A stretch of 63,424 nt of DNA, filler included. It is 19 parts of 19 records of this genome, joined end to end, with 100 filler letters (N's around TTAATTAATTAA, not from the genome) between each part and the next. Parts side by side here need not be neighbours in the genome. Positions count along the whole stretch, not along the records: positions 48,947 to 51,317 come from SRR16133337_63268; 18 more parts are not named here. One strand, given 5' to 3'. The notes under the pieces are model-generated. The model was not told the DNA's origin, ran no database searches, and saw nothing but the letters and a program-made list of their open reading frames with translations. The position numbers and the translations under genes are program-made. This document shows positions 1 through 54,666 of this stretch, in pieces. Position 1 is the stretch's first letter, and each line of letters begins with the position of its first letter.

Positions 1-2953
1 TCCGAATTAAGATGTTTTAAAATTATATATTGAAAATTCTTAATGTCAATGGAGTGAAAAAAAACTGTGTAAAGTGACCACTGGTGTGGTTTGTGTGAGG
101 ATGGCAAGGGGACATGACAAGCATGTGAGTAAAATTGAAAAGAAAAGTGAGAAAGATTTTTGACAAAACAGGCGTTCGCAACATTTGGCTTGCTGTAGCG
201 GGATTGACAAGTGCTCTTTCAACACGAATAGTACAAAATGCCAGTTGGCTCACTTGCAAAATAAAACCGTTCCAAAATCGCTGCTTCTTATGCTCACTCT
301 TGAGTTATTTTTTTTTTCCACCTTGTCACAAGGGGCGGAACCGCATTTGGGCCTTCCAACCACAAAAACATGGGACAAACCCACCTTCCAACAATGGTAG
401 AATAATTGTCTTGTGTTCAGGCATTTGGTTCTGCGATCATCTGACTCTTGAAATCGAGATTTAATTTCGAGTTTTTTACTGGCTGAAATTTTTCCCCAGC
501 ACTGTAGGAAAACATTCGAGAAAAATGTAAAAATGACAAAGAATCAATGTAAAGGATGCGCCCATTTTAGGGGTTTTGAAAAAGGTCGCGTTTCACGAAC
601 GAAACATTTTTCCAAAAGGGCATCCTTTGGTCAAGGTGCCTATGTCTGTGACTCTCTGTAGAAAGTTTACACTGGTTCTTTCTGAACCAATGGAGGATTC
701 ATTGTCGGAAGCATTCTACCTTTGTGAGTTTAGTGTCTGATTTGGTTCTATTTGCTGTGATAGGGTCGGAAAGGGCAAAATTTTGATCGTAAAGCTGTTA
801 TGGAAGAGTGTGACAGCAAAATTTGGACGTCAAAATTAATGCAGCTCTACAAGAAAGATGTGAACCGGTCAACTCTTAACAACCCTTCTGAAATAGCTGG
901 TGTTTGGACGTGGATGATTTGCAATGGTAATAGGAATTCCTTGTCTGCAGTGTTGCTGAGAAAAGATGGCACCTTATACAAAGTAGCAGGTAAAGTACAT
1001 TGCCAACCAGAGGACTGAGTGGCCAACAACTATTTTCTTTTTGCGAATATGAAAATTTTTTATTGACCGGTTAGGTTTACAACAGGCTTCAGCCTGGCCG
1101 GGGGGAAATTTGAAAATCACATTCTTGGGCACTAATCCCCGCGAGAAAAACCGTAAAACTGCATGAAATCTCAAGTAAAACATGAAAACAAAAAATTTTG
1201 ACTCAAAAGGTGACATTTTCGATGCACAATAATTCGCGAATTTGGATATTTTTGGCAAAATTAGACCTTTTTCGAGCAGGCACATCTCCTGACCGGGCAA
1301 TAAAAATTTGTAATATTCTTCAAGAAAACTGAATGTAAAACTCTCTTTGTGTTCAAATTCTCCCACTAAGCAATATCTCAAATGATTTATCACCTATTGT
1401 ACAATTTTCTGTCATTCTTCGCTCTGACCCTCCACCACCCAGCCCACCGCGACAACAACAAACTTCCCTGGTACTGTAGAACTTGAAGACTTACTTTGTG
1501 AAAATGTTTGCAAGGTTCTTGTTTTGTAGAAGTGAAAGTGTGCACGGTGCGTGAGTTTTTGAAGTCCGACAAATTGTCTTCACCAAACTATGGAAAGCAA
1601 CCTAAAATCAAATGTTGTTGCCTGCAGTCAACCTGGCTGTCACAGTGTTATCATTGGTGAAGAGAATTTGAGTTCGTTTGGGTGATTGGAAAGACTTTGT
1701 GATTGGCACTAGCACGTGTTGAATGTGTCAAAATGAATTTTTGCAAATCGGAGCTCTTTTTATTCACATCACACTCAGTCATACTACAGATTTCACAAAG
1801 AAACAAAGAAAATAAAATGAAACGACAAGCCAGTGTGAAAATGTTCACAAATACTTTCAATTTTTTGGCTCGGTTCAGCTTTTAAAGTGTCGTTAAAAAA
1901 TCCATTCAGATGCTTTTTTGGCGCACTGTTTCTTCACTTTAAAGCATATCTTGTGAAGAAAAACTATGCGAAACCCAGCTTGGCCATACGTGGGTTTTTT
2001 CAACCACACCAGGAGTAACTTCGGAGCCGCCTCGGGGCCGCTTCAAACACCAACAAAGAAAATCACGCCAGCAAACCGATTGGTTAGTTACTCTTTGTGG
2101 TCAAAGAAGCATCTGAATGGATTTTTTTAATAATGCCAAGTACATGGGATGCTCCTCCAACTTACCTGAACAAAGGGTGCATCGGAACTGTTTTTTGAGC
2201 TGCCGGTTTCTGACAATAGTAGCTGGTGCAATTTTGTGAAAACTGAATCGGAAATAATTTAAATTTTCTTGAACTCTGAATTGATGTGTGGATCGAAAAA
2301 ATTGACATGGCAGTGCACAGCAACAGAGTTCCCCCTTACACCGGAAAGAGTGTAAGCTGACATAAAAATTGTCACTTGTATGAACTAATGTTATCAATTT
2401 ATTAGGTGGAGCTGAAGGTACTTGGGGTGTTTGTGGCAATGTGTTAATCATGCTCATGTCTGTGACAGAATATGGAGAAACATTTACGAACACTTATAAA
2501 TGTGAGATGAATTCAAAGCGAAATGTTTTTATTGGAATTTGGGCACCTTCTGGCAGACGATTTTATGGGTGGAGATGAGTTGATGGTGAAACAATGATTG
2601 GGTTTGCATTGATATTAAGTGTTTTTTAGGTTTGATGTTCAATGAAAGTAAAGTTGTAGTGTTAGCTGTAAAAATGTACACACTGCTGAATTTCTGACTG
2701 AAATTTTTGAGGACAGTTTATGTAGTGGTGTGGAGTAAAATTTGATCGACCTCTTTAATTTAGAGCAAAGTTTTAGCAACGTAGCATGCATACCTATCAA
2801 TGAACTATGGATTTCGAAAGCATTTTATATTTATTGTCACACATATTTTTTGTGTGTTCATTCATGTGCAGTCGAGGAACAAGTCACAATCTAAAATCAA
2901 CAAAGCCGGCAAATTTGCATTGGTTGAAGCACCGAAAGTTCTTTCGGTTTCAT

Positions 2954-3053
2954 NNNNNNNNNNNNNNNNNNNNNNNNNNNNNNNNNNNNNNNNNNNNTTA
3001 ATTAATTAANNNNNNNNNNNNNNNNNNNNNNNNNNNNNNNNNNNNNNNNNNNN
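2954..3053. other. Artificial contig linker N44-TTAATTAATTAA-N44 (first of 18; others start at 6306, 13476, 15987, 18673, 23393, 25511, 28613, 36356, 38484, 41216, 43441, 46228, 48847, 51318, 54872, 57001, 59970)
   Basis: Identical 100-bp structure each time, stop codons in all frames; genes are cut off at these points. Confidence 0.99.
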
Positions 3054-3099
3054 TCACTGTTTCACAACAAGACTGCATGACAACCAAATGGAATATCAT

Positions 3100-3951
3100 T
3101 TAAGAAGTTGATAAAGAAATGGTATCAATTAACCGGATTGAACCTGCAAAAACAGTGATAAATGCTCTGTATTTTATAGTAGGTTTTTTTTCTGAACTAG
3201 CTTTAAGGGTTGTTTCATCCGCAATTTCAAAGTATTCCAATTCCAATAAGGGATGCTTTTTAAATTCGGCAGAGACCCAAGTATTTATTTCAAGAATTGA
3301 AGAGGAAGCAAATTTTGACTTTACTTTTTTGAGGGTTTTATAAATAAAGGGAGCCGCCTGTCTTTGTAGTGCTGTAAGACGTAAATTTCTAGAACTCATT
3401 GCCAATCCATCCTCTTCTCTGTAAATGGGACAACATTTTATTTTTACGGGAAGATTTTGTTGTTCTGTAAGTTTTTTAATGATTTGCAGTTGTTGGAAGT
3501 CTTTTTCTCCAAAATACGCATGAGTGGGTTGTATAATCTCAAAGAGTTTTTTGATGATGGTTCCAACACCGTTAAAATGATTGTTTCTATAACCACCTTC
3601 CATTTCGTTTTCTAGCCCATCAAAAGAAAAAGTTTCAGAAACAATCTGATTGTTATAAATCTTTTTTGTAAAAGGAATAAACACAAAATCACAACCTACT
3701 TTTTTTAATAAATTTAGATCTTTTTCAATTGAATTCGGATAATTGAGAAGATCTTCTTGCCTGTCAAATTGTGTTGGATTTACAAAAATACTAACGACCG
3801 AAATCGTATTCTCTGTTTTAGCTTTCTCAATCAAAGAAAGATGTCCTTGGTGTAGTGCTCCCATGGTAGGAACAAGCCCAATTGTTTTATCAGATGATTT
3901 TAAGGAAGTTATAATAGAAGTTATTTCTTCAATTTCTGTGACTACTTTCAT
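3100..3951 (-). CDS. panC: Pantoate--beta-alanine ligase
   Basis: GLVPTMGALHQGH, SIFVNPTQF, YFGEKDFQQL, REEDGLAMSSRN, RLIDT motifs; start moved to ATG 3951 (MKVV) because a -7 promoter box lies at 3976-3983. Confidence 0.97.
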   Translation of the reverse strand: MKVVTEIEEITSIITSLKSSDKTIGLVPTMGALHQGHLSLIEKAKTENTISVVSIFVNPTQFDRQEDLLNYPNSIEKDLNLLKKVGCDFVFIPFTKKIYNNQIVSETFSFDGLENEMEGGYRNNHFNGVGTIIKKLFEIIQPTHAYFGEKDFQQLQIIKKLTEQQNLPVKIKCCPIYREEDGLAMSSRNLRLTALQRQAAPFIYKTLKKVKSKFASSSILEINTWVSAEFKKHPLLELEYFEIADETTLKASSEKKPTIKYRAFITVFAGSIRLIDTISLSTS

Positions 3952-46327: not shown

Positions 46328-47345
46328 TGGAATCCACGGCCGCTATTCGAACCAATTTAATTGGATTTTGCGCGATCGGGTAGTCGAGGATGTGGTAGTG
46401 TATCAAGACGATCACTGCGCGGTGAGTAGTTTTGCAGTCGCATACGAAATCAAAGAAATGGTGAAAGCAATTGCTAAGGAGCTCGGTATCGAGTTAAGTG
46501 AGGAAAAATGGGAAGGACCGTGTACGATGTTGATTTATCTTGGAATTTTGACGAACACTGAAGATTTTTCACTTTCAATCCCGATGGACAAAGTTCGTAA
46601 AGCGATTGCATTACTAAAATATTTGTTACGAGTGTCATTCATCACAAAGTTAAAAATTCAAGAAATTGTCGGCTTACTGAATTTCTTCATTATCGTTATT
46701 CAACCAGGAAAAGCATTTCTCGGGAGATTGATTGCAAAATTGAAAGGCTGTACTTCACAACGATTTAAGATGAAAGTGACTGATAGTATGAGAGCAGAGG
46801 CTACGTGGTGGTTGAAAGTTTTGCAAGCCGGTTTCACCCGTTCTTTGATGATGGAAAGACAATGGACACATGCAGATACAATTGAGCTTGGTGGCGATGC
46901 GTGCAATGCAAGTGGAGGGGTATTTTTGGGCTCATTGTGGTTTTTTGTTTTGTGGGATGCAGATATTGTTCAGTGGCATATTAACGAGAAAGAATTGCTA
47001 TGCATAATTTTAGCAGTGTCCACTTTCGGCAATATTTTCCACAGGAGGAAAATAGTTTTTCATTCAGATAATCAAGTTACGGTGTCCGCAATTTCGAGCC
47101 GCAGGTCTTCAGGGGTCAGAATCGCTATGTTATTGCGAACTCTTCATTTTTTAGAAGTTCAATTTAACTGTTTAGTGCGTGCAAAATATGTTCCTGGCTC
47201 AGATAATTATATTGCAGATTTTTTATCTCGAGGAAAATTTATGGAATTTGCAAATTGTTTTTACCAAAAATTCGGCCATCCTCCTTTTCAGAGTGCTTGT
47301 AGAGTTATTTGGCCTGTTTTTGATGACATTGGCAGACAACCTTGA
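46328..47345 (+). mobile_element. DIRS/Ngaro retrotransposon RT (C-terminal part) + RNase H, 5' cut
   Basis: YQDD, YLGI, VGLLNF, GDAC, HINEKEL, HSDN, VPGSDNYIADFLSR. Confidence 0.9.
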
Positions 47346-47655
47346 GTTGGCGTAATTTTAATGTTTTAATAATAAGAAAATGTATATATTTATGTGTGTT
47401 TGTATTTGTACCATTTTTTGTTTTTAAGAAGTTGTTAATATTGACATTATTATATTTCGGTAATTGTCACAGTTATGAGTGAAGCCACAACTGAAATTAC
47501 ATTTTTTCAGTAGCGTAAGACACGTTCTGGGTCTTTATAGAGATTGCATTATATTTGCCATGTTATTTTTATTATTGGGCAGAAAATTTAAGATTAACAA
47601 GTTTGTCAGGTGGAAAGGATATTTTCTTAAAGATTCATAATATTTTTCATTAGAC

Positions 47656-48663
47656 TTGAACAGTCAGGACATTTTGTTCATGAAGAATAAAGAGATTTAT
47701 TCCCTAGCTCCAGAATTGGCAATTTTGGCCAAAACATTTTTTATCAACAGCACAGCCAAGAGCACAAGAGCAAATTACGGGACGGGACAAAAGCGTTTCA
47801 CAAAATTCTTGGAGAAATTCCGTTTGCCTTATATTATGCCATCCGATGAAGATACGTTAATTTTATTTGCCTCATATCTCGCAACCGAAGTGGCTCCCTC
47901 GACAATTAAAAATTATATTTCTGCTGTCAGTGCTCTAAATAGAAACAATGGTTTCGAGTTAGATTTGAAAAAGATGGTTGTTTTGCAGAGAATCATAAGA
48001 GGTATTCGAAAAATTGTAGGTGACGGGAGCGGTCGAACCCGTTTACCAATCACAACTAAAATTCTGCAGAGATTGGCAAGAATGATTGATTTTTCAGTTC
48101 CAGATAATTTGATGTTTTTTGCTTTATGTTGTTGTGCAACTTTTGGTTTGCTTCGTTTGGGTGAAGTTGTGGGGAAATCCAAGAGAGATACATGTCCATT
48201 GGTCATTGGAGATCTTCGAGTATTTAATTTACCATCGGCCCAGTATATTGAATTACTTTTAAGGAACACGAAATCTGATCCGTTTCGACAGTCAGTGAAG
48301 GTTCAGATAGGAAAGACGGGAGCCGATGTATGTCCTGTTTCACTTCTTTTGACATATCTGCAACGTTTTAGACCGTTTGCACACGCAGATGAGCCATTGT
48401 TTTTGTTAAGTTCAGGTGGAAACGTGTCCAAAGGTGATGTTGTGAAGTGGATTAGAGTATATTTAGACAAATGTGGATACGATTCCAAATCGTATGCTGG
48501 ACATTCTTTTCGTAAAGGGGGTGCTACAGACCTTGCACGAATTGGCACTCCGGATCATTTGATTCAAGTAATGGGTCGCTGGACATCAGATGCTTACAAA
48601 CTTTACATAGAGACTCCTCCAGAGCGGAAAGCTAGCTTGGCAGCTAGAATGTTATCACCATAG
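47656..48663 (+). mobile_element. Tyrosine recombinase of the DIRS/Ngaro element
   Basis: STRANY, STIKNYISAV, FGLLRLGE, TKSDPF, CPV, GHSFRKGGAT, MGRWTSDAYKLYI. Confidence 0.92.
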
Positions 48664-48946
48664 AGAGAGAGCGTGTTTTAGTTTGTACTGTAATTATTTA
48701 TCTTATAACATATCATTTATGTCACAAGTATAGTAATAGTATGGTGTTTATTTTAGAGTGGCGTAGAGTGTGCCACAGACATCTTTATAGTAGCGTTACT
48801 CCAGGGGTTGGGATGCGAATGTAAGAGCGTCTTACATTTTGGGCGANNNNNNNNNNNNNNNNNNNNNNNNNNNNNNNNNNNNNNNNNNNNTTAATTAATT
48901 AANNNNNNNNNNNNNNNNNNNNNNNNNNNNNNNNNNNNNNNNNNNN

Positions 48947-50334
48947 TCTTTGTCGATAAAATGAGATAAAACAAATTTCTCATTATATAATTCTTTTGAA
49001 TAATAAGTGAAAAATTTATTAAATAAAGTTATGTTTTCTTTTAACTCAGGTTCTGATTTGTCGATTTCGATATTTATTTTGGATAATCTTTTTTTCTTTT
49101 CAGAGATGCTTTTTTCTAAGCTTTTTATTTGTTCTAATTTCTCGTCAAATTGACCCTTCTTTTCAAATTTTGTATTCAATTCAGAAACTAATAAATCATA
49201 GTCTGCTAACGAACCTGTATTTAATAACTTTTTCCCTATTGCTTCTTCTTCTTGCAATTCGAGGTTTAAATTATTCTTTAATTCTTCCGTTTCTTTTTCA
49301 ATGATAGGAATCCCTTTTGAAATGAATTTGAGTTTATTTTGTATTAGAGAGTTGTGAAACTTTACAGCATCTTCAAATTTCTTCTGTAAGGCAGGAATAA
49401 AGGATTGCGTCTCAGAATACAGTGTTTGTAATGCTTCCTTGTCAACAGTAGAAATATTATCTTTTAAATCGCTAATATTTTCTTGCATTAAATTTAAACG
49501 CATCTGCTTTTCCGCTAGTTTAGAAGAAATTGTATTTATTTTTTCTTTTATAAATTTCAATTTTTCAAACTCTTCTTGATATTTAGGAGAAACATTGAAC
49601 TCTTTCTTCTTATTGTTTAATTCTTCAATATCATTTTGTAAAGTCTTTAAAACTTGTTCAATTGTAGTTGAAGGCTGATTTTTTGAGATCTTAGTTAGAT
49701 AATTAGTTTCTGATTTTAATTGTTCCCTAACAATTTGTTTTTCTGATAAAAGTTCATTTTTCCCTTTTACCCCAAGCATATAAAGGAATATTGTTTCGTA
49801 AACCGTATCTTTTGTTACAGGTAAATATTTAAGGATATTATTCATTTTTAAAGCATCATTCCGTATGAAACGAGATGCTATTTGTCGGAATGTAGGTTTA
49901 TCAGATTTAATCCCAAAAATTATTTCATTTAATTTAGGATTGTAGTCTTCCTTTAAATTAGGGAAATTTTCTCCGTTAATTGATGCTATTTTTTCTTTAC
50001 GTTGTAAGAAATTTCTTTTTAAAATTATCTCTTTAGAGCTATCTTCTTGAAGAGAAGATGTTAAACATACTGAAACTTCTACATTATTATTAATTAGAAA
50101 TTGTTTAACATTCGTATCAGTATTTTTAAATTCTGCACCTTGATAAATATCCTTACCACTACTGCCAAGGCAGTAATCAATTAATCTTAGAACAGTAGTC
50201 TTTCCAACATTGTTACCCGATTCTTGTATTTTTGACTCAGGAGTAGTATCAACAATAAGGTTTACTCCTTTTTTGAAGTCAATTTTACGGAGTGTTTTTC
50301 CGTTCTTTATTATGTGGAGGTACTTTAAAAACAT
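48947..50334 (-). CDS. SMC-like ABC ATPase, DUF2326 family (ABC three-component / Lamassu LmuB-like), 3' cut
   Basis: FKKGVNLIVD, Walker A SGNNVGKTT, LIDYCLG, long coiled coil, FHNSL. Confidence 0.88.
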
Positions 50335-50561
50335 TTTTGTAATTGTCCTTTATTATTTAAGGTAACTAAATCTAAAAGGTATAACCAATCAATAGCAAGA
50401 ACATATTGATTAAATGAACATTTGTGATTTGAACTAATATGGTTTTGATATAAATCAAACAAATCCAAATCTGTTTTGTTTTGTTTTTTGATAGTCTCCA
50501 ATAGCTGAGCCCCAATAAAATATAAACTATATTCAGGTTTTATGTCTCTTGGTAAAATCAT
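50325..50561 (-). CDS. ABC three-component middle component (LmuC-like)
   Basis: 78 aa, MILP.DIKPE.SLYFIGA..L, LAIDWLYLL; overlaps both neighbours. Confidence 0.85.
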   Translation of the reverse strand: MILPRDIKPEYSLYFIGAQLLETIKKQNKTDLDLFDLYQNHISSNHKCSFNQYVLAIDWLYLLDLVTLNNKGQLQKCF

Positions 50562-51109
50562 TGTTCGTTAGGGTCTTCTAAAATTTTACATTGAATAAAT
50601 GCGTCTGCTACAATAATTTGAATAGCAGAATGAACATCTTCATTTTCAACATCCAAATTTGATGATTTTAAAATCTCGGCATCCAATTTTGTTATTATGT
50701 TTTCAATAATTAAATCTGCATTATCACGAATAACGTCAATATTATTAGTTTGTGTTAGGCTTCCCTTTTCTGCTTTATAAAAGTCAGAAACCACCCTTAA
50801 TAGTTTCCCTTTTTTCCCTGGTTTTTCTTGTTCAAGAATTTTATATATACCTTCTAATACTTTTCCATAAAGACCATACTCGTTAATTAAGTATCGGTAT
50901 TTAGCTATATTATTGTGTTTTATCTTTTTTTCAATTTCTGGGAATTCTTTTAGGATCCCAAAATCAGTTTTCTTTTCAAGGTCAATTTTTGAAATAGCAT
51001 TGACAACTCTTGCAATTACAGATTTATTTTTTAAAACATTAATAATATTAATATCTCTATTTGCTTGGTAACCTGTAGAGTCCTCACTATTGTTTTGCTC
51101 TAAACTCAT
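50558..51109 (-). CDS. ABC three-component C-terminal-domain protein (LmuA-like) with no enzymatic effector; N-terminal STGYQANRDINI motif
   Basis: IEKKIKHNNI, IIVADAFIQCKILEDP end; ATGA overlaps with both neighbours. Confidence 0.8.
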   Translation of the reverse strand: MSLEQNNSEDSTGYQANRDINIINVLKNKSVIARVVNAISKIDLEKKTDFGILKEFPEIEKKIKHNNIAKYRYLINEYGLYGKVLEGIYKILEQEKPGKKGKLLRVVSDFYKAEKGSLTQTNNIDVIRDNADLIIENIITKLDAEILKSSNLDVENEDVHSAIQIIVADAFIQCKILEDPNEQ

Positions 51110-51279
51110 TTTTGATTTATATTAATATCTCTCCCTGATTGATAACCCGTAGAATTGCCTTTCATTTTTTGTTTCTGAGTGACTTGTTTCTTGTATTTAT
51201 TCTTTTGTATCATTTGAATAATACCAAAAATCAACATAATTAAACCAAAAAACCAACTTGAAATTGAGTAGAAATCCAT
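51106..51279 (-). CDS. Unannotated 57-aa single-TM protein with C-terminal STGYQSGRDINI motif
   Basis: Own translation MDFYSISSWFFGLIMLIFGIIQMIQKNKYKKQVTQKQKMKGNSTGYQSGRDININQK*; stop overlaps next ATG (ATGA); TATATTTG -7 box at 51296-51303. Confidence 0.82.
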   Translation of the reverse strand: MDFYSISSWFFGLIMLIFGIIQMIQKNKYKKQVTQKQKMKGNSTGYQSGRDININQK

Positions 51280-51417
51280 AAGCCTCTTTTTTTAGCAAAT
51301 ATAATAAATTATAATTANNNNNNNNNNNNNNNNNNNNNNNNNNNNNNNNNNNNNNNNNNNNTTAATTAATTAANNNNNNNNNNNNNNNNNNNNNNNNNNN
51401 NNNNNNNNNNNNNNNNN

Positions 51418-51799
51418 AAGGAGGATTTAAGAGCTTGATAATGGATAATGTTTCTGCAAACAAGCAAGCTACATAGGGAACAAAAAAAGCAAAAAACTCT
51501 ATACGATTTATCTTTCCATCTGCATGAAGATCAGGAAAGAAAAAAATAAAGAAAACAGCAAATTTGAGAAAGCTTCCTATCATAAACAAAAAACCTAGTT
51601 GGTCGCGGTATTTTTTACGAAAAAAGAATAACCCGCTAAAAATAACAGTAACTAGCAAAAAGTTTAGGAAATAGGCCCACACAATTTTGTTCTCTAAAAG
51701 AGGGAAATCAAAATAATAAAGAAAAGTCAAATGAACACTAAAAACGAGGATCAAAAAAAACGATAATTTCAAAAAAAACAAACGTATTTGTTTCGGCAT
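51418..51799 (-). CDS. Four-TM membrane protein of the atp upstream region (DUF6168/AtpI-like), end at contig edge
   Basis: QLGFLFMIGSFLKF, FFVPY; follows atpZ-like gene. Confidence 0.75.
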
Positions 51800-51803
51800 G
51801 GAC

Positions 51804-52031
51804 TTATTTTGGGTTTTGAATTTTTTTTAATTGAGCTAAAAGGCTGTACATAGAAACCAAAAAAGCAAGGAGAACTAAAGTTAGGGTACACCACCTTCCA
51901 AGTCCATAAGATGCCTCTAACTTTTTTCCAAAGTAGGCGGCCAAATACATGGTAACTCCCATTTGAATTCCAACGCTCGATAATCGAATAAATGTATTAA
52001 GCGGTTTTTTCTGTGGATTTTTTAAGTTCAT
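51804..52031 (-). CDS. AtpZ/AtpI-family small membrane protein
   Basis: SSVGIQMGVTMYLAAYFGKKL; two TM segments. Confidence 0.82.
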   Translation of the reverse strand: MNLKNPQKKPLNTFIRLSSVGIQMGVTMYLAAYFGKKLEASYGLGRWCTLTLVLLAFLVSMYSLLAQLKKIQNPK

Positions 52032-52401
52032 TTTGATTGAGATCTTTAACCATGCCTTTCATACTACAAGTAGCATTAAAAGAGGCACCAGGTTCTACCG
52101 TTAATTTACCTATAGTGACTTCTCCATGGATGATAGCTGTTGTTTTTAAAGTGAGCATATCGTTGATTAATAAGCTTCCTGAAACTTCCCCTTCAATATC
52201 TGCATTGGGAGATTCTATCAAGCCTTTTACCTTTCCTTCTTTACCAATAATGACCCTTCCTTTAGCTCGTACATTTCCTTCAACAGTTCCATCAATTCTA
52301 AAATCACCTTCAGAGTTGATATCTCCAATAATGATTGTTTTTTTACCAATAACATTTCTTTCCAAAATAGGGTTTTCTTTTATTTTAGGATCTTTAAACA
52401 T
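51997..52401 (-). CDS. Bactofilin (polymer-forming cytoskeletal protein)
   Basis: IGDINSEGDFRIDGTVEG, VIIGKEGKVKG, LTVEPGASFNATCSM. Confidence 0.93.
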   Translation of the reverse strand: MFKDPKIKENPILERNVIGKKTIIIGDINSEGDFRIDGTVEGNVRAKGRVIIGKEGKVKGLIESPNADIEGEVSGSLLINDMLTLKTTAIIHGEVTIGKLTVEPGASFNATCSMKGMVKDLNQNELKKSTEKTA

Positions 52402-52413
52402 ATACAGGGATTT

Positions 52414-54666
52414 TTAGTTTATTTTAAGAATTAATTCTTTTGCTTTTTTGCTTTCTACAGTGTTCGCATAATTTAAAACAATATATTCCAACGCTTCCTT
52501 AAAAGCTTCTTTTCCTTTTAATTTGGCAATAGCATAGGCTTTCAACAAGTCTAATTTTGGAAGAATTGAAGATCCTTCAAAGATAGGAAATGCCTCTGAA
52601 ATATCATAAAGTGTTTGCGTATAATCTTCGGATTGATATTGCAAATAGATTTCTTTATACTTGCTTTCAGGTGTCAAGCCATTATTTTTTGCGGCATTTA
52701 ATTTTTCTGGATTCAACAGGATTTGTGCAAAAACAGACTTGGGAAATTGATTGATAATTATATTTTTATACAGTGCCGCTTTTGGATCTTTTAATTCCGT
52801 ATAAATTTTATACAAATGGTAATTTGTTCCTAAAACAAGTTTCCCTTCTGGGGAAATAATCAGGAGTTTTTCTAACTTTTCAATAGCTAACAAAGGCTTT
52901 TTAAACTGTTCTTTGTATAGCAATCCCAATTGATAATAAGTCTTACTCATCAACTCAGAAATACTGTCAAGCTCTCTTTGTGTACTTGGCAATTGCTCTA
53001 AATAATAGGCTACTTTATATTTTTCAGGAACTACTTCTGGTTTGGAACTTTCCTCAATAGCGGTTTCTTTTTGAACTTCCTCTGTTTGAATCCTAGATTT
53101 TTCTGACCAACGCCAATTGTCTTTTAATTCTCTAGTACCCCATACTTTTTTAAACTCTTGTTCGCCAAAACTCAATGTCCGTGTATTGTAAAAATACCAT
53201 TTCCCTTTGTAATCCTTTAATTGTTGGTCACCAAGACGAGCCATTCCTAAATTTTGATGTTTTTCCAAATCCTTTTTAAATGCGGCGGTTTCTTTTGCTA
53301 CGGCCTCTTTTTCTTTGAGAAGTTTGATATAAGACTCAAAATAAAAAGACTGCTCTTCTTTATCCATAGAAATAATATTCCACAAACTATCATTTCTTTG
53401 AAGAATGTCTTCAAAAGTTAAAACCACTTCTAAACTTTGATGTTTTCTTTTTAGACTCCGAATACGTTTTGTGTTTATTTTTTTTGATACTTGCAAGACA
53501 CTGTCATAATAGGTTCTTGCCAAAAAATAATCAGCTTCTTCAAAATAAAGATTTCCTAAACTTTCAAAAGACAAGCCTTTTTGAAAATCTTTGGTGTTTT
53601 TTGTATGAATTGAATGATTATAGCTTTCAATAGCAAGTTCTCTGTTGCCTTGTTTCTCTTCTAAAATAGCCAACTGATAATAAAGTTCATCAAGATAAGG
53701 TCTGTTGTCTCTATTCTGTATAAGCTTTTGAAGTTTCTCTACCAAGAGTGTTGCATCATCTCCTTGTCTGTGATTTTTTATTTTTTCAATTTCTGCGTGG
53801 ATTCTGTATTTATAGGGAGCTTTTTTGAATGCTATCAATTCTTGAAATGCTTGCTGCGACAACTCAACATTATCTGTTTGACGGTATAATTGTCCTAAGA
53901 TCAATAAGTTCCTCGATTTTTTTTGAGGATTTTTACTGTATACAACAGCTTTCTTTAAGTGATCTATAGTCAAAAAAAGACTATCTAATTGTCTGTAAGC
54001 AATTGCCATTGCGATATGTGCATCTTCTACAACATTCTCTGAAATTTTTTCTTTTTGAAGTAAGGTCTTTAAAGAAGTTATCGCAAGATCTTCATTTTGC
54101 AAACGTATATTGGTTTTTGCTCTCCAAACCAAGGTTTCATCGATCAAATTTGCTTCAGGATAGTTTTTTATGACATAGGTAAATGCCTCTAAAGCAGGGA
54201 CAAATCTTTGCGAATAGTACCTTGCTTTTCCTAATAATAAAAAAGCATCATCAATTTTTCGGTTGCGTTCAATGTCTTCAAAATTCATGGAATGTTTTTG
54301 CACAGCTTTTACTGCTTTTTCTTCTGCGATTTCAAAAAAACTCAACTTTTTATTTGAAACATTCTCTTCTTCTATTTTTTCCTCGTCTTTTGTTTTTTTA
54401 TGAATAGGAATTTCCAATATTTCTTCTTTTTCTTTTCTTTTTATCTCTAAGGGTTCTATGGGAAGGACGGTCCAATAATTATCATTGTACTGATTATTGA
54501 TCTCGGAGAGTCCTGTCTGAAACGCAAGCTCTCCATTGTATAAAATATTATACCCTGTTGTCATAGCATGGTACTCTCGATTGAGAAATCGATTCTTTTT
54601 GGTACTACAGCCTACAAGGATGACCCCAATAAAAAAGATAATTTTAGGGACGTGTTTTTTATTCAA
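52414..54666 (-). CDS. sprE: TPR lipoprotein SprE/PorW of the type IX secretion system
   Basis: Lipobox LVGC-STKKN, YNILYNG, KAVQKHSM, WYFYN, WGTRELKDNWRWS; upstream of bactofilin. Confidence 0.88.
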   Translation of the reverse strand: MNKKHVPKIIFFIGVILVGCSTKKNRFLNREYHAMTTGYNILYNGELAFQTGLSEINNQYNDNYWTVLPIEPLEIKRKEKEEILEIPIHKKTKDEEKIEEENVSNKKLSFFEIAEEKAVKAVQKHSMNFEDIERNRKIDDAFLLLGKARYYSQRFVPALEAFTYVIKNYPEANLIDETLVWRAKTNIRLQNEDLAITSLKTLLQKEKISENVVEDAHIAMAIAYRQLDSLFLTIDHLKKAVVYSKNPQKKSRNLLILGQLYRQTDNVELSQQAFQELIAFKKAPYKYRIHAEIEKIKNHRQGDDATLLVEKLQKLIQNRDNRPYLDELYYQLAILEEKQGNRELAIESYNHSIHTKNTKDFQKGLSFESLGNLYFEEADYFLARTYYDSVLQVSKKINTKRIRSLKRKHQSLEVVLTFEDILQRNDSLWNIISMDKEEQSFYFESYIKLLKEKEAVAKETAAFKKDLEKHQNLGMARLGDQQLKDYKGKWYFYNTRTLSFGEQEFKKVWGTRELKDNWRWSEKSRIQTEEVQKETAIEESSKPEVVPEKYKVAYYLEQLPSTQRELDSISELMSKTYYQLGLLYKEQFKKPLLAIEKLEKLLIISPEGKLVLGTNYHLYKIYTELKDPKAALYKNIIINQFPKSVFAQILLNPEKLNAAKNNGLTPESKYKEIYLQYQSEDYTQTLYDISEAFPIFEGSSILPKLDLLKAYAIAKLKGKEAFKEALEYIVLNYANTVESKKAKELILKIN

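Follow-up and report, generated by a model that had tools for sequence, protein, structure and literature searches.

The operon described here joins a short Lamassu system to an extra first gene, which encodes a 57-residue membrane peptide sharing a short tag with the LmuA-like protein encoded next to it. The operon is an ABC-3C/short-Lamassu system, the small open reading frame (ORF) is a real, conserved gene under purifying selection, and the conserved tag, which co-varies between its two carriers from lineage to lineage, is kept at the protein level. We propose, and give the proposal an even chance, that this is a short Lamassu system with a split-off effector, in which a membrane peptide recruited through the tag kills the cell. 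An anti-phage function for the operon as a whole is predicted from its kinship with Lamassu.

Organization of the operon and its assignment to Lamassu

The window, by which we mean the whole stretch of DNA that was analyzed (63,424 nucleotides), consists of unrelated short contigs chained via N44-TTAATTAATTAA-N44 spacers. On the minus strand of one of these contigs lies an operon that encodes, in order, the 57-residue membrane peptide, a 183-residue LmuA-like protein, an MC6 middle component, and a truncated LmuB ATPase. Its features are as follows.

48947-51317, contig SRR16133337_63268 (2,371 bp), with the operon on the minus strand
51295..51302, minus strand, TAnnTTTG box, starting 24 nt and ending 16 nt before the ATG of the small ORF
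51106..51279, minus strand, 57-residue single-pass membrane peptide, the proposed split effector (ORF; homologues P0016-P0021; alignments A2 and A3)
51205..51267, minus strand, hydrophobic transmembrane segment of the peptide, at about residues 5-25 (sequence, alignment A2, AF2)
51115..51177, minus strand, C-terminal tag of the peptide, with its core at 51118-51153 (residues 43-54), from local alignment to the LmuA N-terminal tail
50558..51109, minus strand, short-form LmuA, 183 residues (Pfam CTD10 at 1.1e-8 over residues 34-178, above the cutoff)
51041..51100, minus strand, N-terminal tag of the short LmuA, with its core at 51044-51079 (residues 11-22), aligning to the peptide tail
50325..50561, minus strand, LmuC, ABC-3C middle component 6, 78 residues (Pfam MC6 at 4.8e-20, full length)
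48947..50334, minus strand, LmuB, SMC/Rad50-like ABC ATPase, first 462 residues (PADLOC PDC-M68B at 1.6e-37, LmuB at 1e-16)

An earlier, sequence-only reading of this DNA had described four coupled genes behind a TAnnTTTG box, and both parts of that description hold: four ORFs succeed each other on the minus strand with overlaps of 4, 4, and 10 nt, and the box is present upstream of the small ORF, where just 38 nt of contig remain. We take TAnnTTTG to be the Bacteroidota-type -7 promoter element, in which case it would presumably drive the operon; it stands at -24 to -26 in four of the nine loci examined (L001, L002, and L022 among them) and at -36 in a fifth (L024). The same reading had proposed that the larger ORFs be searched against ABC-3C/Lamassu profiles, and CTD10, MC6, and PDC-M68B/LmuB were all matched.

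The ATPase ORF, when read as 48895-50334 on the minus strand, enters an N spacer, so that the real sequence stops at 48947; LmuB is cut by the contig end, with about 110 C-terminal residues missing. The translation shows a Walker A-like G-x4-GKT. The earlier description of this gene as a DUF2326 SMC-like ATPase was right about the ATPase, which PADLOC assigns to LmuB, while DUF2326 is undetected by Pfam search in the window's fragment and is found instead in the full-length homologues of L001 and L002 (574-575 residues), where it occupies residues ~447-573. No further effector gene was found in the operon: LmuB is followed by housekeeping genes in L002 and, in L001, by 535 bp without any ORF of at least 40 residues. 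In L002 the operon adjoins a type I restriction-modification specificity gene.

A short LmuA preceded by a conserved membrane peptide

An effector domain is absent from the N-terminus of the window's LmuA, in which CTD10 is preceded solely by a disordered tail of about 25 residues that carries the tag. The AF2 model has a pLDDT below 50 at residues 1-18 and is helical for the remainder, and a structural search of 48,161 chains ranked LmuA C-terminal regions in the first two places, with weak Z scores of 4.9 and 4.8. Foldseek against the PDB returned nothing at an E value of 0.001 or less (the best row was a YydB model, E 0.49), and a profile search of PDB sequences gave no relevant match. The description of this protein as an LmuA-like subunit with the helical C-terminal domain only is thus upheld, its relatives bearing fused HNH or SMEK domains.

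The short form is common within the family. All 15 close homologues of the window's LmuA are 182-189 residues long, and among the best 150 representatives of the family 107 are of the short form; a further 35 of these representatives exceed 230 residues and are mostly HNH-like. Among the relatives are "all-in-one" proteins of the type HNH-CTD10 (HNH in L003) and SMEK-CTD10 (SMEK_N in L004 and L008), and a hydrophobic N-terminal segment occurs in none of the proteins above 205 residues among the best 150 representatives. The possibility that the two ORFs are one frameshifted gene in relatives, which the sequence-only reading had itself raised, is ruled out by the uniform length of the 15 close homologues and by the lack of any fused transmembrane form among the best 150.

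The peptide comprises a hydrophobic helix, a Lys/Gln-rich juxtamembrane linker, and the C-terminal tag. Within or near the transmembrane segment, W9, G12, G19, Q22, and Q25 are invariant in alignment A2, and AF2 models a helix over residues 3-41, with pLDDT up to 90 at residues 11-20, and an unstructured tail with a pLDDT of ~49. As the Lys-rich stretch comes after the transmembrane segment, the positive-inside rule points to an N-out/C-in topology. What had been put forward as an unannotated transmembrane ORF behaves as a conserved gene: dN/dS is 0.12-0.24 in the close clade (window versus L001 and L002) and 0.29 between two Clostridium plasmids, and on the Clostridium plasmids the small ORF is annotated as a CDS and has a strong Shine-Dalgarno sequence. 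The peptide matches no family above cutoff in Pfam, NCBIfam, or PADLOC, and a protein atlas queried with it returned unnamed clusters of 55-60 residues alone, at a borderline 0.90.

A tag shared within loci and differing between lineages

The tag cores of the peptide and of LmuA are identical at 10 of 12 residues and form direct repeats 74 nt apart; the motif coordinates, the degree of identity, and the three synonymous differences named in the sequence-only reading were all confirmed. Across nine peptides T44, G45, Y46, Q47, and N53 are invariant, as are G13, Y14, Q15, I20, and I22 across 16 LmuA sequences. The aligned stretches of peptide tail and LmuA head span 10-27 residues, mostly 19-27. 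Compared with the remaining protein, the tags are rich in Gly (13.5% versus 3.5%), Asn (15.5% versus 8.0%), and Gln (8.5% versus 2.5%); Leu and Pro are depleted, Lys is not clearly so, and Val is not enriched. The same bias is seen in the 107 short-form representatives, and both tags are disordered in AF2 monomer models.

An upstream membrane peptide with a matching tail accompanies every one of the nine short-form CTD10 loci with available DNA, a set made up of the window and eight rows, of which six are new loci and two are L001 and L002 under other ids. A locus counted as paired if a hydrophobic ORF preceded LmuA and its tail aligned to the LmuA head with a score of at least 43, a threshold chosen after the positives had been seen. 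Of the 47 loci whose LmuA is fused to an effector (such as HNH or SMEK), none has a paired peptide, and the best score among them is 31. Two further pairs of peptide and short LmuA were matched indirectly, through the identical length of their contigs. The short-form loci for which DNA is at hand come from two phyla, as Bacteroidota and as Clostridium plasmids, and represent six independent lineages, with five tag types in Bacteroidota and one in Clostridium that match within the locus and differ between lineages.

The true pairing of tags is the unique maximum of 720 permutations in all three choices of lineage representatives, and the upstream transmembrane ORF with a co-varying motif, which the sequence-only reading had suggested looking for in homologues, is indeed there. 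In the closest clade (window, c162110, and c1248) the window's tail scores its own LmuA no better than those of the two sister loci, and permutation at the level of the clade gives a weak test, in which 5 of 120 permutations attain the observed value. Codons at the 107 shared-residue tag positions are the same in 58 cases versus 59.6 expected from codon usage; this count, being at random expectation, indicates that the match is held at the protein level, in line with the selection claimed earlier. The same count speaks against a match that arose by recent gene conversion alone, and that reading was rejected. In L002 the same-codon count is 12 versus 8.2 expected, and this excess of shared codons may reflect some gene conversion at that locus.

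Complex prediction with full LmuA and full peptide, in which the supplied alignments were unused, gave a median of 0.33 against a mark of 0.34; the runs scored 0.33, 0.03, and 0.39, and the controls 0.00-0.01.

Searches for further loci added little to this set. A metagenome scan yielded one locus, of the HNH-fused form, a viral scan found SMEK-fused forms only and no short form, and tblastn against phage records gave no match. The second tblastn search of plasmids recovered the same three Clostridium records again, and two order-level samples (401 and 351 genomes) contained no new short forms. A CTD11 search returned one HNH form and three weak matches under the family cutoff, two of which were judged unrelated on inspection.

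Proposed mechanism and alternative explanations

In the mechanism that we propose, LmuB and LmuC (MC6) would form the DNA-sensing core, LmuA would retain the docking and oligomerization domain (CTD10) together with a disordered, Gly/Asn/Gln-rich N-terminal tag of about 25 residues, and the first gene would supply a single-pass membrane peptide of about 60 residues with the tag on its cytoplasmic C-terminus. Sensing would release LmuA, which would oligomerize via its CTD, as in Cap4-LmuA, and the N-terminal tags clustered in this way would make a beta-sheet nucleus. This nucleus could then capture or template the matching tags of the membrane peptide in a homotypic, BASS-like, amyloid-type manner, drawing the transmembrane helices together, breaching the membrane, and causing the infected cell to abort. 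The parts of this scheme differ in strength. Direct binding of tag to tag is probable, and we lean slightly toward the peptide being the killing effector through membrane damage, even as its putative executioner part is a bare helix with no Bell- or HeLo-type domain. That the tags act by amyloid-like templating, and not as a simple stable beta-zipper, is a tentative suggestion that we would put somewhat below an even chance.

Association and co-variation would fit equally well if the tags formed a constitutive, non-amyloid beta-zipper, with the peptide serving as the detached N-terminal membrane anchor of LmuA and the complex always at the membrane; killing could then follow from CTD-driven clustering of the helices, or the output could be another. 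The translational coupling at all junctions would suit equimolar, co-assembled subunits, and split and fused effector forms interchange in the LmuA family. We nevertheless consider a stable tether unlikely. Neither the 15 close homologues nor the best 150 representatives include a protein in which transmembrane helix, tag, and CTD10 are fused, which is odd if the peptide is a mere detached anchor, and a disordered tag rich in Gly, Asn, and Gln would make an unusual stable interface. Co-variation is likewise expected if the tags never touch and instead dock in the same groove, on LmuB, LmuC, or CTD10, because both would then track that groove; the N-terminal tail of LmuA might, for example, occupy it at rest, with the peptide tail competing upon activation. 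Disorder of the tags in isolation, as in short linear motifs, agrees with such mimicry. The tags vary far more between lineages than the CTD10 body does, however, no co-varying groove was identified, and the composition resembles that of beta-arch or amyloid motifs and would not be typical of groove-binding peptides, so that we rate a shared docking site as somewhat less probable still than a tether.

It could also be speculated that the small ORF, which stands first in the operon and in the window shares 4 nt with the start of LmuA (elsewhere the junction varies between an overlap of 11 nt and a gap of 5 nt), encodes a leader peptide controlling LmuA expression, the likeness of the tags being a by-product of local duplication. 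This is improbable, given that purifying selection acts at the protein level on both hydrophobic helix and tag and that, from lineage to lineage, the tag changes together with the LmuA tail, which a leader peptide would not need. Least credible, and already largely refuted, is an origin as a chance duplication, a gene-conversion product, or a single frameshifted gene: the direct-repeat arrangement of the two copies and the slight codon excess in L002 would fit it, but it is opposed by the pairing in nine of nine short-form loci across six lineages with differing tags, by synonymous sites that are overall at random expectation, and by the failure to find a fused relative among the close homologues and best representatives.

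It is conceivable, though we consider it rather unlikely, that the operon stands for a large overlooked class of Lamassu in which abortive infection proceeds through prion-like templating, passed on from an SMC-type DNA sensor to a membrane peptide of about 60 residues that annotation mostly misses. Clustered at 50% identity, the sequences of such a class would form about a hundred clusters, and the class might include the published "effector-less" clade. Its lineage-specific tags would be orthogonal address codes, and amyloid-type adaptors would be a general wiring of prokaryotic immunity, tied neither to NLRs nor to multicellular bacteria. The many lineage-specific tag pairs could be natural material for studies of specificity by swapping, and catalogues of defense systems should include a search for ORFs of 55-80 residues beside seemingly truncated genes.

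Relation to known systems

No paper describing a pairing of Lamassu with a tagged peptide was found; Krishnan et al. 2020, who reportedly defined ABC-3C, may mention membrane partners of CTD10. In literature matches for Lamassu and amyloid, neither term appears in the titles or abstracts. As far as the available text of the matches for LmuA and transmembrane goes, one "transmembrane" belongs to another system and one match describes Cap4-type Lamassu.

The order of LmuA, middle component, and SMC-like ATPase, together with the matches to CTD10, MC6, and DUF2326/LmuB, is that of short Lamassu/ABC-3C systems such as V. cholerae DdmABC. Unlike in those systems, LmuA in the window is without an N-terminal effector domain, and an extra first gene encodes a membrane peptide sharing a tag with LmuA. 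In a structural preprint on Lamassu, LmuA is released and then tetramerizes through its CTD; the effectors named in the available text include no membrane effector, and the word "transmembrane" occurs there 0 times (10.1101/2025.04.02.646746). The same source reports an effector-less short-Lamassu "clade O" of >100 sequences from >40 species, which resembles the window's operon in having an effector-less LmuA beside intact LmuC and LmuB. This likeness is drawn by description, the available text on the clade offering no explanation and mentioning no extra small gene. The pairing described here may explain such so-called effector-less Lamassu through a separate micro-effector gene of a kind that annotation often skips.

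The sequence-only reading had presented the coupling as uncharacterized, and this needs qualification. Amyloid signaling in an anti-phage system has already been reported for Bab/Agp (BASS11) of E. coli, in which adjacent genes share an amyloid motif and mediate abortive infection (10.1101/2024.11.07.622273); Lamassu, ABC, and SMC are absent from the available text of that report. In both systems adjacent genes encode a Gly-punctuated motif of ~25 residues, located C-terminally in the executioner and N-terminally in the sensor-side protein, and both have a non-NLR sensor and a membrane-acting executioner, the latter as proposed here. The Bab/Agp executioner is a Bell-like helical domain, as opposed to the bare transmembrane helix of the window's peptide, and for Bab/Agp fiber formation has been shown, whereas fibers of the window's tags are a prediction. 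As Bab/Agp works without an NLR, an NLR/STAND sensor is evidently not obligatory for amyloid signaling.

A similar layout, motif length, and enrichment in Gly, Asn, and Gln characterize the Bell-NLR BASS pairs and fungal HET-S/NWD2, going by the available part of the source, and the Bell-NLR pairs likewise have "all-in-one" relatives with a fused effector in place of the tag (10.1101/2020.01.06.895854). As in BASS/FASS pairs, one short motif is found on the executioner C-terminus and the sensor-side N-terminus of neighboring genes, here in nine of nine short-form loci. BASS motifs are described as ~25 residues long, rich in Gly, Asn, and Gln (and Val/Ile), and poor in Lys, Pro, and Leu; Lys, at 8.0%, is higher in our tags than reported for them. 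The G-phi-Q-phi-G core of RHIM/PP/BASS3 bears a loose likeness to G-Y-Q-S-G in the window (10.1101/2020.01.06.895854). Unlike the described BASS/FASS pairs, the window's operon has no NACHT or NB-ARC domain, its partner protein being the LmuA CTD10 of an SMC-type system, and its executioner would be one long helix that contains a single hydrophobic segment, not a Bell/HeLo-like domain. Moreover, BASS pairs are reported, in the same available text, mainly from multicellular bacteria (10.1101/2020.01.06.895854), whereas the loci analyzed here belong to unicellular Bacteroidota and Clostridium. Fungal and bacterial NLRs, like Bab/Agp, are known to wire a sensor to a membrane executioner by matching tags; such wiring would here reach SMC-type DNA sensors as well as the Bacteroidota and Clostridium, and the operon may thereby link two known kinds of system, Lamassu and tag-paired amyloid-type signaling.

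Operon structure and surroundings

The operon fills one entire contig, 48947-51317, with four ORFs on the minus strand.

ORFs of the operon
51106-51279 (-): small ORF (peptide), 57 aa
50558-51109 (-): CTD10 protein (short LmuA), 183 aa; Pfam CTD10, 1.1e-8, residues 34-178
50325-50561 (-): MC6 protein, 78 aa; Pfam MC6, 4.8e-20
from 50334, running off the contig end at 48947 (-): ATPase, 462 residues; PADLOC PDC-M68B, 1.6e-37, and LmuB, 1e-16

The ABC-3C/Lamassu character that the sequence-only reading had given to the three larger ORFs is borne out by these CTD10, MC6, PDC-M68B and LmuB profile matches. DUF2326 was not detected in the ATPase fragment of the window; in full-length homologues it occupies residues ~447-573. 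For the 57-aa ORF, no Pfam, NCBIfam or PADLOC family reached its cut-off. Successive genes overlap by 4, 4 and 10 nt, and a TAnnTTTG box begins 24 nt ahead of the first ATG, within the only 38 nt of upstream sequence on the contig. The motif reported at the C-terminus of the peptide and the N-terminus of LmuA is indeed present at 51118-51153 and 51044-51079, with 10 of 12 residues identical and all three synonymous differences (ACG/ACA, TAT/TAC, ATA/ATT) in place.

The window consists of about 19 short contigs separated by N44-TTAATTAATTAA-N44 spacers, so that neighbours across a spacer carry no genomic-context information. One neighbouring contig, 46368-48663 (+), has two ORFs with weak matches below the Pfam cut-offs: one of 325 aa to RT-type RNase H and one of 335 aa to tyrosine recombinases. 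Together they resemble a eukaryotic retroelement of the DIRS/Crypton type, a hint that the assembly is of mixed origin. The next contig in the other direction, 51418-54666 (-), has housekeeping genes like those of Bacteroidota, for a DUF6168 membrane protein (weak match), a bactofilin (2e-26) and a TPR protein of 750 aa.

A conserved peptide paired with short-form LmuA

The fifteen homologues found for the 183-aa protein share 58-85% identity with it, range from 182 to 189 aa and all open with the same N-tail, in which G13, Y14, Q15, I20 and I22 are invariant. At the two of these loci examined as DNA, L001 and L002, a 59-62-aa ORF lies directly upstream and overlaps the LmuA start; its hydrophobic N-terminus resembles that in the window and its C-tail mirrors the LmuA N-tail of its own locus. 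Six more homologues of the small ORF occur in the protein collection, two of which were taken as pairs with a CTD10 homologue on the basis of equal-sized contigs. The peptide is under purifying selection, with a whole-ORF dN/dS of 0.12-0.24, similar to that of CTD10 (0.12-0.17). In its AF2 model a single long helix spans residues 3-41 and the tail after it is unstructured; residues 1-18 of LmuA, its N-tail, are modelled as unstructured too, with a helical body behind them. In L002, a 477-aa ORF (2322-3755), recognised by eye from its translation as resembling a type I restriction-modification specificity subunit, stops 57 nt ahead of the ATG of the small ORF; such a neighbour would be consistent with a defence island.

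Pairing extends to distant relatives. A CTD10 search of 401 Bacteroidota genomes matched 12, yielding four new short forms (L022, L023, L024, L026), each with a small hydrophobic ORF upstream that adjoins or overlaps the start of LmuA and each with a peptide C-tail that aligns to the LmuA N-tail, the tag differing lineage by lineage. Independently of that search, on two Clostridium botulinum plasmids (L013, L015) an annotated 78-aa hypothetical CDS overlaps the gene of a CTD10 protein of 220 aa, MC6 and DUF2326 genes come next, and the common tag is another Gly/Asn-rich type. With a P63C-domain gene on one side and a capsid gene on the other, this four-gene operon probably sits in a prophage-like part of the plasmid.

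An automated scan found an upstream hydrophobic ORF with tail/head scores of 43-107 in 8/8 short-form rows (two of which, L016 and L017, repeat L001 and L002, the window pair being documented separately) and such a paired ORF in 0/47 long-form loci, with the threshold of 43 chosen after the positives were known. Some upstream hydrophobic ORF is present in 7/47 long-form loci, scoring 15-31. These counts leave out L007 (identical to L006), L011 and L012 (truncated), L028 (below cut-off), the split frames L041/L057 and L042/L058, and L019, L021, L025, L027, L031 and L066, where CTD10 matches fall within ATPase-sized frames. These last frames, of 573-614 aa, have an LmuB-ATPase-like start and follow a middle-component gene; it may be that some Lamassu ATPases include a stretch resembling CTD10, or that their coiled coil cross-reacts with the model. 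The expected conservation of an upstream hydrophobic ORF with a matching tag was thus found at 9 short-form loci with DNA, and pairing is shown for these and for 2 protein pairs.

Searched against 1.84 billion proteins, the short-form profile retrieved 587 cluster representatives at E<=0.001 (317 at E<=1e-10). The best 150 of the 587 comprise 107 proteins of 165-230 aa, 35 above 230 aa, mostly HNH-like, and 8 below 165 aa. Residues 2-26 are at least 40% G/N/Q/S/T in 82 of these 107 short forms; the mean for short-form representatives is 45% there vs 23% in the protein body. A few of the remaining short-form representatives look like fragments of HNH forms. P0040, P0064, P0065, P0133, P0136 and P0170 are CTD10 proteins of ~205-215 aa that start mid-HNH-like motif; they could represent split HNH effectors, or their starts may be mis-called. 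Among CTD10 proteins less closely related to that of the window, fused effectors are seen in the metagenome locus L003, whose N-terminal HNH-like domain has visible catalytic-looking motifs and a Pfam HNH match below cut-off, and as SMEK_N fusions in viral and prophage contigs and one Priestia plasmid. No protein above 205 aa among the best 150 of 587 has a hydrophobic N-terminal segment, and so no fusion of TM helix, tag and CTD10 was seen.

Origin of the tag match and a possible mechanism

Had the tags diverged independently after an old duplication, a tag should be no closer to its own partner than to those of other loci. With one representative for each of 6 lineages, no other of the 720 permutations scored as high as the true pairing, in 3/3 choices of representative. 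Taken by itself, the closest clade gives a weak signal (the observed value was reached by 5/120 permutations), and the window peptide scores slightly higher against the LmuA of a sister locus than against its own. The same codon is used at 58/107 aligned identical-residue positions, vs 59.6 expected from codon usage, so that gene conversion does not account for the match; L002 shows a mild excess (12 vs 8.2). The lineage permutations and codon counts together argue that the similarity is held at the protein level, as had been suggested from the synonymous differences, and an artefact, be it chance duplication, gene conversion or a frameshifted single gene, is highly improbable.

LmuA is reported to be held on LmuB2C as a monomer and is thought, after DNA-end sensing, to be released and tetramerised through its CTD, activating the N-terminal domain (10.1101/2025.04.02.646746). 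On the strength of the Lamassu and BASS precedents, and of the layout, tag composition and fused relatives found here, we propose a tag-capture mechanism. CTD-driven oligomerisation of short LmuA would bring its N-tags together to nucleate beta structure, which could capture membrane peptides by their matching tails, drive their helices together and so damage the membrane. The peptide tag would lie in the cytoplasm, on the same side as LmuA, because of the Lys-rich stretch after the helix and the positive-inside rule. We infer tag-tag contact, the amyloid character of the tags and membrane damage by the peptide.

Other roles for the pairing can be conceived. It is possible, though unlikely, that the tags act as a stable tether that holds peptide and LmuA together constitutively, with no switch; somewhat less likely still is that both fit one common groove and never contact each other. 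That the small ORF is a leader controlling LmuA expression seems quite improbable.

Comparison with known systems

A structural preprint on Lamassu names Cap4, Mrr, protease, Sir2, FMO, HNH, SMEK and lipase as effectors and describes an unexplained clade that has "seemingly lost the effector domain" (10.1101/2025.04.02.646746). Pairing of short forms with a peptide may account for this puzzle. A literature search found no link of Lamassu/ABC-3C to amyloid-type motifs or a membrane peptide; the founding ABC-3C paper and its supplements lay outside the search and may mention one. Being widespread, open to direct testing and a possible answer to the published puzzle, paired short-form Lamassu is of high interest.

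In amyloid signalling pairs, one ~25-residue G/N/Q-rich motif is carried by the executioner C-terminus and the sensor N-terminus of adjacent genes, and fused "all-in-one" relatives exist (10.1101/2020.01.06.895854); Bab/Agp shows that such motif pairs can work against phage even when the sensor is not an NLR (10.1101/2024.11.07.622273). The operon described here is laid out in this way and has fused relatives too; its tag composition is partly similar, G, N and Q being enriched and L and P depleted, with K (8.0%) not clearly reduced and V not enriched. The system in the window is classed as a combination of Lamassu with BASS-type signalling, each of them a known kind.
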